DNA from: a virus
Lineage: Duplodnaviria; Heunggongvirae; Uroviricota; Caudoviricetes
Length of the DNA stretch: 18,609 nucleotides
Reading direction: 5' to 3' (one strand)
IMG/VR virus record: IMGVR_UViG_2534681878_000012
Span: 1-18,609 of that record
The notes under the pieces are model-generated. The model worked only from the letters and a program-made list of their open reading frames with translations. It was not told the DNA's origin and ran no database searches. Below are positions 16,833-18,609 of the stretch, piece after piece (position 1 is the stretch's first letter; each line of letters begins with the position of its first letter). Both the position numbers and the translations under genes were made by a program.

Positions 16833-18609
16833 ATGACATTTAAACATTATGATGTTGTCAGGGCGGCGTCGCCGTCAGACCTTGCGGAAAAGCTGACACA
16901 CAAACTGAAAGAGGGCTGGCAGCCGTTTGGTAGTCCGGTGGCCATAACCCCTTATACCCTGATGCAGGCGATTACAGCAGAAGGTGATGTGGTGGTCAGT
17001 GGTGCAACTGAGCCGGATTGGTACTACGTCATCGTACTGGCCGGGCAGTCCAATGCCATGGCTTACGGTGAAGGGCTTCCGCTGCCGGATTCATACGATG
17101 CTCCGGATCCGCGCATTAAACAGCTGGCGCGCCGCAGTACAGTGACGCCGGGTGGGGCTGCCTGCAGATATAACGATATTATTCCGGCCGACCACTGCCT
17201 GCATGATGTGCAGGATATGAGTACGCTGAATCATCCGAAGGCAGACCTGAGCAAAGGGCAGTACGGCTGTGTCGGCCAGGGCTTACATATTGCCAAAAAA
17301 CTGCTTCCGTATATCCCGAATAACGCGGGGATCCTGCTGGTACCATGCTGTCGTGGTGGTTCGGCATTTACCCAGGGCGCGGAGGGGACATTCAGTGCGG
17401 ACACGGGGGCCAGCCAGGATTCGGCGCGCTGGGGTGTGGGTAAACCGTTATATCAGGACCTGATTGCGCGCACCAAAGCTGCATTACAGAAGAACCCGAA
17501 AAATGTGTTGCTGGCGGTGTGCTGGATGCAGGGAGAGTTTGACATGAGCGCCGCCACCCACGCACAGCAACCTGCGCTGTTTACAGCCATGCTGACACAG
17601 TTTCGTGCTGACCTCTCCGTGTTTAACGCGCAGTGCCATGGTGGCAGTGCTGCAGATGTGCCGTGGATTTGTGGTGACACGACGTATTACTGGAAAAATA
17701 CATACGCTACCCAGTACGACACCGTGTACGGCGGGTATAAAAACAGGGAGAGTGAGGGCGTTTATTTTGTGCCCTTCATGACAGACGGTAACGGCGTCAA
17801 TACCGCCACTAACGCGCCGGCAGAAGATCCGGATATTCCGGCATCAGGATATTACGGTGCGGCATCGAGAACGAATGGAAACCAGGTATCATCAAACCGC
17901 CCGACACATTTCAGTTCATGGGCGCGCAGGAGCATTATTCCGGATCGTCTGGCAACCGCTATTCTGAACGCAGCCGGGCGCACCTCAGCCTTCATCAGTG
18001 GTAAGGCACCGGAAATCAAACCCTCGCCCGGCGGCAACACGCCATCGGGTCCGTCTGCAGATACGTCCGTTCGCACAATCTCCCTGCTGCCGGCAGCCGG
18101 AGAGGCTGCTGCGCAGGGCTGGAGCATTAAGGATGGCGGAATTCAGTTGTCAGATGGTGTATTTAAGATCACCAGGCAGAGCAATAAAACCTGGTCCCTG
18201 ACGCATCCGGTGGATGACGCAATTACCCTGCTGACACAGGGCGGCAGACTGACCTGTAAGTTCCGCCTGTCAGGCGCACTGACCAACAATCAGTTCGGGC
18301 TGGGGATTTATCTGTATACGGATGCTCCCGTTCCTGATGGTGTGGCGATGACGGGTACCGGTAATCCGTTCCTGATGTCGTACTTCACTCAGACCACTGA
18401 CGGCAGAGTGAATCTGATGCATCACAGGAAAGCCGGAAACACGAAGCTGGGGGAGTTCGGCGATTACGGTAACGACTGGCAGACGCTGGAGCTGGTGTTC
18501 ACCGCCGGCAGTGCCACGGTTACTCCGAAACTGAATGGAGTGGCTGGCCCGGCATTCCAGGTTATAAAAGACAGTCTGACACTGGGACTGAATGCGCTGA
18601 CGCTGACGG
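16833..18609 (+). CDS. nanS: NanS-p-type prophage sialate O-acetylesterase; runs off the window end
   Basis: Open frame to the window edge (hence absent from track); GGGAGG RBS; MTFKHYDVV...EGWQPFG N-terminus, GQSNAMAYGEG catalytic-type motif, long C-terminal extension. Sits between the Q/pR' region and the expected lysis genes. Confidence 0.7.
   Translation, partial: MTFKHYDVVRAASPSDLAEKLTHKLKEGWQPFGSPVAITPYTLMQAITAEGDVVVSGATEPDWYYVIVLAGQSNAMAYGEGLPLPDSYDAPDPRIKQLARRSTVTPGGAACRYNDIIPADHCLHDVQDMSTLNHPKADLSKGQYGCVGQGLHIAKKLLPYIPNNAGILLVPCCRGGSAFTQGAEGTFSADTGASQDSARWGVGKPLYQDLIARTKAALQKNPKNVLLAVCWMQGEFDMSAATHAQQPALFTAMLTQFRADLSVFNAQCHGGSAADVPWICGDTTYYWKNTYATQYDTVYGGYKNRESEGVYFVPFMTDGNGVNTATNAPAEDPDIPASGYYGAASRTNGNQVSSNRPTHFSSWARRSIIPDRLATAILNAAGRTSAFISGKAPEIKPSPGGNTPSGPSADTSVRTISLLPAAGEAAAQGWSIKDGGIQLSDGVFKITRQSNKTWSLTHPVDDAITLLTQGGRLTCKFRLSGALTNNQFGLGIYLYTDAPVPDGVAMTGTGNPFLMSYFTQTTDGRVNLMHHRKAGNTKLGEFGDYGNDWQTLELVFTAGSATVTPKLNGVAGPAFQVIKDSLTLGLNALTLT

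Follow-up and report, generated by a model that had tools for sequence, protein, structure and literature searches.

The window, as we refer to the whole 18,609-nt stretch of DNA analysed here, ends in a segment with the gene order Q, a pR′-like promoter followed by tR′, a moron slot, a convergent pair of small RNA (sRNA) genes (plus-strand STnc100 and minus-strand AgvB), and nanS-p, which is predicted to encode a prophage sialate 9-O-acetylesterase (Table 1). A prophage of the O157 strain FDAARGOS_293 shares 99.9% identity with the window; in this prophage, nanS-p is followed by genes for holin, endolysin/lysozyme and Rz, and its annotation includes a lambda E-type capsid protein and a gpD-like decoration protein. 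The stretch between positions 14400 and 18609 is covered to at least 80% in 413 of the 5,426 complete E. coli genomes.

Table 1. Features of the region from Q to the end of the window (window coordinates).
Feature	Coordinates	Strand	Remarks
Q antiterminator gene, Qin/YdfT type	14841..15661	+	two PF03589 domains and DnaJ-like zinc finger
pR′-like late promoter (putative)	15667..15694	+	TTGATT, 16-nt spacer, TGgTAAATT; read from sequence
tR′-like intrinsic terminator	15742..15766	+	7-bp GC-rich stem (hairpin 15742-15759) and T7 run; terminator scan
tciA (TerB-family) pseudogene	15881..16261	+	no start codon, first 17 codons missing, in-frame TAG 15965-15967
tciB, small membrane protein, DUF3927, 43 aa	16258..16389	+	Pfam 45.6 bits; WP_001344632.1 in near-identical genome
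STnc100-family (PasD-related) sRNA gene	16433..16623	+	own terminator 16591-16612
AgvB anti-GcvB sRNA gene	16624..16685	-	convergent with STnc100; terminator 16649-16630
Additional terminator-like hairpin and T run, nanS-p leader	16710..16737	+	terminator scan
nanS-p, prophage sialate 9-O-acetylesterase (predicted)	16833..18609	+	codons 1-592 of 617; gene cut by window end
DUF1737 coding segment	16839-16982	+	
SGNH/SASA esterase core coding segment	17007-17969	+	
Gln72-Ser73 codons	17046-17051	+	
His359 codon	17907-17909	+	
Lectin-like C-terminal domain coding segment	18093-18569	+	

The last ORF had been assigned to the NanS-p esterases in the initial annotation, and this assignment is borne out by several comparisons. 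Preceded by GGGAGG at 16823-16828, just 5′ of the ATG start codon, the frame stays open without interruption for 592 codons through the final base of the window; the gene is intact in the nearest public genome and has 617 codons there, so that 25 codons and the stop would lie beyond the window end. Pfam matches above the gathering score were obtained to DUF1737 (PF08410, aa 3-50, 57.7 bits), SASA (PF03629, aa 66-262, 48.7 bits) and DUF6645 (PF20350, aa 467-577, 66 bits), and the protein displays the three-domain architecture of NanS-p, with an N-terminal DUF1737, a SASA/SGNH core and a C-terminal lectin-like domain. NCBIfam yielded no model naming the esterase. In the PDB, the core matched NanS/YjhS (3PT5) with E=1.3e-121 in an alignment that covers aa 59-379 and in which AGQSNAMAYGEG is identical and HFSS is aligned, and the C-terminal part matched the NanS-p C-terminal domain 6YP6 with E=1.3e-23 over aa 421-579; judged by their E-values, both matches are far above chance level. 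PDB, Pfam and Rfam, together with the annotated phage and E. coli collections, sufficed for the identification.

The residues of the putative active site can be followed through the same alignment. The catalytic residues of NanS are Ser19 and His301, with Gln18 in the oxyanion hole (PMC9063846). Gln72-Ser73 falls on chain residues Q29-S30 of 3PT5 (Gln18-Ser19) and His359 on H312 (His301), and the spacing of 282 residues agrees in both numbering schemes. The esterase keeps the NanS-type active site, with Ser and His as catalytic residues and Gln in the oxyanion hole. Over its 592 aa, the protein is 100% identical to its counterpart in FDAARGOS_293, and identity to NanS-p of the Stx1a phage Stx1_14040 amounts to 100% for aa 1-57, 99.7% for aa 58-385 and 98.6% for aa 386-592. 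The gene is placed as expected for nanS-p, in a lambdoid late region, 3′ of Q/pR′ and 5′ of holin, the holin gene being that of the 99.9% identical genome. The ORF is thus very likely an ordinary nanS-p of the Stx1a-phage-type allele, of which the window has the first 96%, and part of the late operon of a Qin/lambda-like prophage that lacks stx and belongs to an EHEC-lineage E. coli. It does lie downstream of Q and pR′, although not directly so, as had been stated earlier, since its start is 1,171 bp past the Q stop codon. Its description as accessory cargo is debatable, as it is a conserved fixture of the late region in Stx and non-Stx phages.

The Q gene appears in the window as two halves (PF03589, 76.4 and 101.1 bits), the ORF being split by a one-base deficit in an A run, which has six residues at 15206-15211 versus seven elsewhere. 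An intact 273-aa homologue in NZ_CP022050.2 scores 168.7 bits with the same model, and one related copy is annotated as ydfT. We considered whether the frameshift could be a real, shared allele that would amount to a dead late operon. This was dropped: the A6 variant was found in none of the 960 public records carrying this stretch, and the differences from the 99.9% identical genome are mostly homopolymer shortfalls. For these two reasons the frameshift probably stems from a homopolymer error in sequencing; if it were real, the prophage would be unable to antiterminate on its own. The Q stretch is present in up to four copies per genome. The location of the pR′-like sequence, directly after the Q stop and before tR′, agrees with the annotated layout of 933W. 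On its left, the cargo (moron) slot is bounded by tR′, and it is exactly at tR′ that homology to the phage PPyecE_EH1910 begins.

Within the slot, the initial annotation had noticed a TerB-like remnant before nanS-p, and such a remnant is indeed present in the form of the tciA pseudogene. Its decay is defined against the intact 143-aa TciA of PPyecE_EH1910; when the stop was replaced, the repaired translation matched the TerB domain (PF05099) with 47.5 bits in Pfam, and RefSeq labels tciA in the near-identical genome as a pseudogene with an internal stop. Relative to PPyecE_EH1910, a 2.58-kb deletion scar truncates the gene in the window. The 156 nt spanning the deletion joint are covered in 477 genomes, which rules out a truncation private to the window sequence.

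The initial annotation had also placed terminators before nanS-p. Terminator-like sites are present, seven of them versus 1.5 expected by shuffling, but two belong to a convergent sRNA pair that had been overlooked. STnc100 matches Rfam family RF02076 over its full length (1-206) with 145 bits (gathering score, 47). AgvB matches RF02702 with 96.5 bits (gathering score, 56) and is identical to the model consensus at 62 of 62 positions. [quoted passage not shown] A putative AgvB promoter may be read as TTGCGC-18-TAAAAT; a consensus promoter scan called neither this promoter nor pR′. At the place equivalent to the additional terminator-like hairpin in the nanS-p leader, phage 434 carries an annotated terminator. 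The STnc100 family occupies the same position in three comparison phages, and a pair composed of STnc100 and AgvB/AsxR precedes nanS-p in PPyecE_EH1910, Stx1_14040 and 933W. Homology to the Stx1a phage starts at 16457 and that to 933W at 16441, so that the cargo slot is bounded on its right by STnc100, the conserved sRNA pair being the fixed edge. With AgvB copies of Sakai, those of Sp10 and Sp17, it was demonstrated that the sRNA is expressed, binds Hfq and antagonizes GcvB (PMC4104026).

This arrangement corresponds to that described by Tree et al. (2014), in which moron CDSs located 3′ of PR′ are followed by convergent sRNAs and then by a conserved ORF, as reported in Sp3, 4, 5, 9, 10, 11, 15 and 17 (PMC4104026). 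The order Q, PR′, moron CDS, convergent sRNAs and conserved ORF is the same here and nothing material is different, the moron CDS in the window being partly decayed. What occupies the slot between tR′ and nanS-p varies among relatives: tRNAs and stx2AB in 933W; three minus-strand genes and stx1AB in Stx1_14040; three tRNAs and tciAB in JLK-2012; a methylase gene, a toxin-antitoxin-like gene pair (annotated as “plasmid stabilization protein” and “transcriptional regulator”) and tciAB in PPyecE_EH1910; and membrane-protein genes and tciB in phage 434. Comparison of the Q-to-nanS-p interval with Stx1 and Stx2 phages, which had been proposed in the initial annotation, yielded the same picture of different cargo and a shared sRNA pair before nanS-p. 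The sRNA pair, nanS-p and the lysis genes constitute the conserved part, and the cargo 5′ of the sRNA pair the variable part.

The closest NanS-p proteins, about 99% identical to that in the window and likewise composed of three domains, are those of the Stx1a phages Stx1_14040 (LC567819), YYZ-2008 and H-19B. These phages share with the window, from 16457 on, a 5′ leader with STnc100- and AgvB-family matches, and have nanS-p before the lysis genes; however, they carry stx1AB immediately 5′ of the nanS-p leader region and another type of Q, whereas the window has the tciA pseudogene and tciB behind a Qin-type Q. As in the window, stx is absent from PPyecE_EH1910 (LC567835), JLK-2012 (JQ347801) and phage 434 (OL657226), in which TerB/DUF3927 cargo is followed by nanS-p and then holin. 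PPyecE_EH1910 also has the sRNA pair before nanS-p and is 97% identical at the DNA level from 15880 on, but retains an intact tciA, the methylase gene and the toxin-antitoxin-like pair, the window being without these 2.58 kb. JLK-2012 differs by its three additional tRNAs, and phage 434 by a Q82-like Q and by membrane-protein genes in place of tciA. More distant are NanS-p of 933W (L0105/z1466) and gp84 of phi24B (vb_24B_21), which have the same three-domain architecture and SGNH motifs; their genes also lie after convergent sRNAs (with AsxR in this case) and before the lysis genes, but these are short-tailed Stx2a phages with tRNAs and stx2AB upstream, and the 933W protein is only 54% identical to that in the window (DUF1737, 56%; esterase, 70%; C-terminal region, 34%). 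The catalytic core of chromosomal NanS (YjhS, 3PT5) aligns end to end, with the GQSN and HFSS motifs conserved. Chromosomal NanS has a signal peptide and is a member of the nanCMS operon.

The initial annotation had also stated that no toxin genes or tRNAs precede nanS-p, and this holds for the entire window. Searches with Stx1A, Stx1B, Stx2A and Stx2B proteins (tblastn) gave a best E-value of only 0.17; stx1AB DNA from Stx1_14040 and tRNA-stx2AB DNA from 933W (blastn) gave chance-level matches, except for the intergenic leader between stx2B and nanS-p; ARAGORN found no tRNA genes in the whole window, and none were listed by an Rfam search at E up to 1. No stx genes are annotated in the whole near-identical prophage. 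The order given in the initial annotation for Stx-converting phages (Q, pR′, tRNAs, stxAB, nanS-p, lysis genes) agrees with the 933W annotation. The accompanying suggestion of a non-Stx relative with a turned-over cargo slot stands with regard to the lack of stx and to the varying cargo, but not as a sign that stx was once in the slot.

Could the prophage nevertheless be a former Stx1-converting phage, in which tciAB replaced stx1AB by recombination and left behind an sRNA and nanS-p module of Stx1 type? From 16457 on, the window DNA is 95.6% identical to Stx1_14040, with the near-identity of the NanS-p proteins noted above, and a preprint proposes repeated stx loss as one possible explanation of esterase-linked sRNA loci (10.64898/2026.05.13.724894). 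However, ordinary mosaic exchange of a nanS-p and lysis module, in whichever direction, accounts equally well for this identity, and to the left of 16457 the window, its Q type included, bears no relation to the Stx1 phage. With no stx remnant at the protein or DNA level, a Q of Qin/YdfT rather than 933W type, and a tciB-nanS-p or tciAB-nanS-p layout without stx also in phage 434, JLK-2012 and PPyecE_EH1910, nothing in the sequence indicates that stx ever occupied the slot of this copy, and we regard such an ancestry as improbable. A reading of the region as a silent, decaying remnant, with a real Q frameshift, a late operon that cannot switch on, and nanS-p on its way to join tciA as a pseudogene, seems equally improbable. 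The split in Q and the decay of tciA are in line with it, as is an O-like replication gene likewise broken in the window, at 5204. Against it speak the lack of the A6 variant in public records and the nature of the six indels relative to the 99.9% identical genome, five of which are one-base shortfalls in homopolymers, a signature of sequencing error; besides the A run in Q, homopolymer sites at issue lie at 1088, 2065, 2234 and 5204. Moreover, nanS-p stays in frame through its 592 codons, with a product identical to the reference protein, and Q copies elsewhere in the cell might act in trans.

A different role for the protein is raised by a cryo-EM and proteomics preprint, according to which DUF1737 of phi24B gp84 decorates the capsid (10.64898/2026.04.10.717836). 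By analogy, NanS-p might be primarily a virion component, with DUF1737 docking on capsid hexons and a mucin-targeting esterase displayed on the particle, rather than cargo benefiting the lysogen. A DUF1737 above threshold is present, and nanS-p, which would be expressed late, adjoins lysis and head genes. On the other hand, this DUF1737 shares just 56% identity with the 933W/phi24B type, and the capsid of the prophage is of the lambda E type, accompanied by a gpD-like decoration protein, rather than the T=9 capsid of a podovirus. The allele of the window type (93% identity or more) was also seen in sampled Stx1a- and Stx2c-phage rows; a DUF1737 match occurs in 47 Stx1a-phage records, but the lambda E-type capsid protein in only 10, and the latter was found in no Stx2c group. 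Since the allele is shared without a shared capsid type, it does not track capsid type, and the simple co-variation that could have supported docking is not observed. With the same allele accompanying at least two capsid types, docking would require promiscuous binding to HK97-fold hexon pores, or would not take place in some hosts. We therefore consider a primarily virion-borne NanS-p unlikely. It is just as doubtful that DUF1737 could anchor the esterase on the prophage's own lambda-type capsid, as a mucus-targeting decoration common to unrelated capsid types.

Under the preferred reading, that of an ordinary nanS-p in the late operon of a non-Stx prophage, the layout and published work suggest that Q would let RNA polymerase read through tR′ and the later terminators, so that nanS-p would be transcribed from pR′ and its transcription would rise upon prophage induction. 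In published experiments, mitomycin C induced nanS-p by 1-2.4 logs, and its conserved position was taken to suggest Q control (PMC10462455). Being devoid of a signal peptide, NanS-p would be released by phage lysis, and the released enzyme may strip 9-O-acetyl groups off mucin sialic acids, so that the lysogens that survive could use the Neu5Ac. NanS-p from non-Stx prophages supports growth on Neu5,9Ac2 (PMC10462455; PMC8065619), and NanS-p from EDL933 and that from O104:H4 strain C227-11 phi-cu were shown to be active esterases (PMC8065619). AgvB would be produced separately, from the opposite strand, and would act as a sponge for GcvB.

The presence of nanS-p in non-Stx prophages, its esterase activity, growth on O-acetylated sialic acids and the sRNA-bordered moron slot are already known, and the layout, being published and common, is not unusual; as a discovery the locus carries little weight, and its value is a practical one, in annotation. 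Before the prophage is called defective, it should be kept in mind that sequencing error is the probable source of the Q frameshift, and the interval before nanS-p should be labelled as the tciA pseudogene, tciB, STnc100 and AgvB rather than as “terminators”. Annotated in this way, the prophage lacks stx but carries two fitness factors that are already known, NanS-p and AgvB.

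Between Q and nanS-p, the initial annotation had placed a TerB-like remnant and terminators, with neither toxin genes nor tRNAs, and the lack of both was borne out: ARAGORN found no tRNA gene in the window, tblastn of Stx1A, Stx1B, Stx2A and Stx2B against it gave a best E-value of 0.17, and blastn with stx operon DNA yielded only chance-level matches, the shared leader excepted. The remnant also stood. A TerB-family frame homologous to tciA lacks the start codon and first 17 codons of the intact 143-aa TciA from the non-Stx phage PPyecE_EH1910 (LC567835), and carries a TAG at 15965-15967 where that phage has Glu. 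A 2.58-kb segment of PPyecE_EH1910 (positions 6141-8718) is absent from the window; it contains a hypothetical gene, a DNA methylase, a toxin-antitoxin-like pair annotated as 'plasmid stabilization protein' and 'transcriptional regulator', and the tciA 5′ end. The deletion junction is A-rich, with AAAAAG at both PPyecE_EH1910 breakpoints and GGAAAG at the window joint. The truncated allele is not private, as a 156-nt joint-spanning probe was covered in 477 complete genomes. The adjacent tciB ends at a TAG at 16386-16389 where PPyecE_EH1910 (9097-9264) has Trp, yielding 43 versus 55 aa; the short form is a normal DUF3927 protein according to RefSeq.

The terminators, however, belong to an sRNA pair that had gone unrecognised, a full-length STnc100-family sRNA and the anti-GcvB sRNA AgvB, each ended by its own terminator. 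The window AgvB keeps the consensus at 62 of 62 positions aligned to the Rfam model and contains CACAACA, the GcvB R1 target motif. This layout, with convergent sRNAs between a moron and a conserved phage ORF, was already described by Tree et al. 2014 in Sakai prophages Sp3, 4, 5, 9, 10, 11, 15 and 17, in which AgvB copies reside in Sp10 and Sp17, while AsxR follows stx2B in Sp5 (PMC4104026). At the equivalent position, PPyecE_EH1910 has STnc100 and AgvB, the Stx1a phage Stx1_14040 (LC567819) has STnc100 and an AgvB-family match, and the Stx2a phage 933W has STnc100 and AsxR.

Features of the region from Q to the window end
Feature	Position	Strand	Basis or remark
Q	14841-15661		two PF03589 domains, DnaJ-like zinc finger
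Putative pR'-like promoter	~15667-15694		directly after Q stop; TTGATT-16-TGgTAAATT, read by eye
Strong intrinsic terminator, expected tR'	15742-15759 + T7 run		terminator scan
tciA-homologous TerB-family frame	15881-16261		PF05099
tciB	16258-16389		DUF3927, 43 aa
STnc100-family sRNA	16433-16623	+	Rfam 145 bits (gathering score 47)
STnc100 terminator	16591-16612	+	terminator scan
AgvB	16685-16624	-	Rfam 96.5 bits (gathering score 56)
AgvB terminator	16649-16630	-	terminator scan
Third hairpin with T run	16710-16737
nanS-p	16833-18609	+	truncated by window end
DUF1737	nanS-p aa 3-50		Pfam, above gathering score
SASA sialate-acetylesterase domain	nanS-p aa 66-262		Pfam, above gathering score
DUF6645	nanS-p aa 467-577		Pfam, above gathering score

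The pR'-like promoter received no call from the consensus promoter scan. The nanS-p frame, preceded by GGGAGG at 16823-16828, is still open where the window ends, 592 codons from its ATG; in the nearest genome, the complete gene has 617 codons. Within the nanS-p 5′ leader, 3′ of the last terminator-like hairpin and 5′ of the ribosome-binding site, the 9-bp arms CTGTAGTCC ... GGACTACAG form an inverted repeat around a 27-nt loop (16742-16786). The product matches E. coli NanS/YjhS (3PT5; aa 59-379, E=1.3e-121) and the crystallised NanS-p C-terminal domain (6YP6; aa 421-579, E=1.3e-23) in a PDB search. The catalytic residues of NanS are Ser19 and His301; Gln18 contributes to the oxyanion hole, and there is no catalytic Asp (Rangarajan et al. 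2011, summarised in PMC9063846). In the alignment with 3PT5, in which the Ser-His spacing of 30 to 312 equals that of 19 to 301, the AGQSNAMAYGEG motif is identical and HFSS is conserved, and the catalytic Gln-Ser and His are found in the window protein as Gln72-Ser73 (17046-17051) and His359 (17907-17909). The ORF thus aligns with NanS-p esterases, as had been proposed, and the initially suggested alignment check confirms its SGNH residues.

The region was compared with Stx phages. The Stx-phage gene order given initially agrees with the annotation of 933W, which reads Q, pR', qut, terminators, three tRNAs, stx2AB, SASA esterase and holin; in Stx1_14040, the esterase gene is directly 3′ of stx1AB. 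Homology to the window starts at 16457 for Stx1_14040 (95.6%) and at 16441 for 933W (72%), i.e. at the STnc100 start, about 50 bp past the tciB stop. Because everything to the left is unrelated, we place the left slot border at tR' and the right one at the sRNA pair. The slot holds three tRNAs and stx2AB in 933W; three minus-strand hypothetical genes and stx1AB in Stx1_14040; three tRNAs and tciAB in JLK-2012 (JQ347801); a methylase, the toxin-antitoxin-like pair and tciAB in PPyecE_EH1910; membrane-protein genes and tciB in phage 434 (OL657226); and the tciA pseudogene and tciB in the window.

The element was rightly regarded as a non-Stx relative. That its slot has turned over describes variation among relatives and a real deletion scar, but there is no sign of this copy ever having carried stx: its Q is of another type, no stx remnant is present, and phage 434 already provides a case of tciB followed by nanS-p with no stx. 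The window NanS-p shares about 99% identity with the Stx1a-phage protein and 54% with that of 933W, and near-identity to Stx1a phages is explained equally well by modular exchange of the block comprising the sRNAs, nanS-p and lysis genes. The conventional view of the esterase as accessory cargo was also followed initially, although nanS-p is a fixed element of the region, outside the variable slot. In the phi24B homologue, the DUF1737 domain is reported to decorate the capsid (2026 preprint, 10.64898/2026.04.10.717836). A crude check for DUF1737 alleles following capsid type revealed no co-variation; the window-type allele was found in sampled Stx1a- and Stx2c-phage rows, and the lambda E-type capsid protein of this prophage in only 10 of the Stx1a records.

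Over its entire length, the window shares 99.9% identity with a prophage in E. coli O157 strain FDAARGOS_293 (NZ_CP022050.2), annotated in the order integrase, excisionase, exonuclease, dicB; repressor and cro; O/P-like replication genes; hokD and a RelE/ParE pair; DUF968, RusA, Q; TerB pseudogene, DUF3927, SASA esterase; class II holin, lysozyme, Rz, terminase and lambda-type head and tail genes. Its annotation contains no stx gene at all. It looks like a complete, non-Stx prophage of the Qin/lambda-like kind, and the same Q-to-nanS-p stretch is present in about 410 of 5,426 complete E. coli genomes. Elsewhere in the window, DicF adjoins dicB (1888-1837, minus strand, 75 bits) and is abutted by an STnc100-like match (1839-1630, minus strand) of 34.7 bits, below the gathering score of 47. 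A segment of about 0.7 kb occurs twice, 1.7 kb apart (7958-8656 and 9656-10352; 96% identity over 300 nt, 88% over 282 nt), giving two copies of a hypothetical gene pair beside ead/Ea22-like genes, the first ea22-like gene being frameshifted according to the reference annotation. In a hok/sok type I toxin-antitoxin locus at 11524-11848, the sok RNA (11524-11698; Rfam, 111.7 bits) and the hokD ORF overlap, and the RelE/ParE-family toxin gene and its helix-turn-helix partner (11951-12632, minus strand) lie opposite to the surrounding early/nin genes.

An A6 run at 15206-15211 interrupts Q in the window; at this site, the genome with 99.9% identity carries A7, and its Q is an uninterrupted protein of 273 aa. 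Five of six single-base indels between the two are one-base homopolymer shortfalls (the Q split, 15205; 1088; 2065; 2234; and 5204, which breaks the O-like replication gene), a pattern that is a signature of sequencing error. Such an error is likely at Q, since none of 960 public records carrying the 81-nt stretch has the A6 form (best identity 98.8%, one gap). We therefore refrain from calling the prophage Q-defective, and the probable errors are worth flagging.

Beyond the observed gene order, intact catalytic motifs and conserved sRNA pair, layout and literature suggest how the region may work. NanS-p would be a late gene, transcribed from pR' once Q carries RNA polymerase past tR' and the downstream terminators; nanS-p rises 1-2.4 logs with mitomycin C by qPCR (PMC10462455), and z1466 is among the most induced genes in array data (PMC8065619). 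Because its N-terminus is a DUF1737 domain without a hydrophobic leader, the enzyme probably leaves the cell at lysis, and could then de-O-acetylate mucin sialic acids usable by surviving lysogens. NanS-p enzymes of both Stx and non-Stx prophages conferred an advantage in growth with Neu5,9Ac2 on EDL933 and on an O104:H4 strain (PMC10462455). AgvB, produced from the opposite strand, would relieve GcvB repression, an activity reported together with improved growth in bovine rectal mucus (PMC4104026). All components and the overall arrangement have already been described. The finding holds but is unremarkable, and is chiefly useful for correcting the annotation of the interval to tciA pseudogene, tciB, STnc100 and AgvB.
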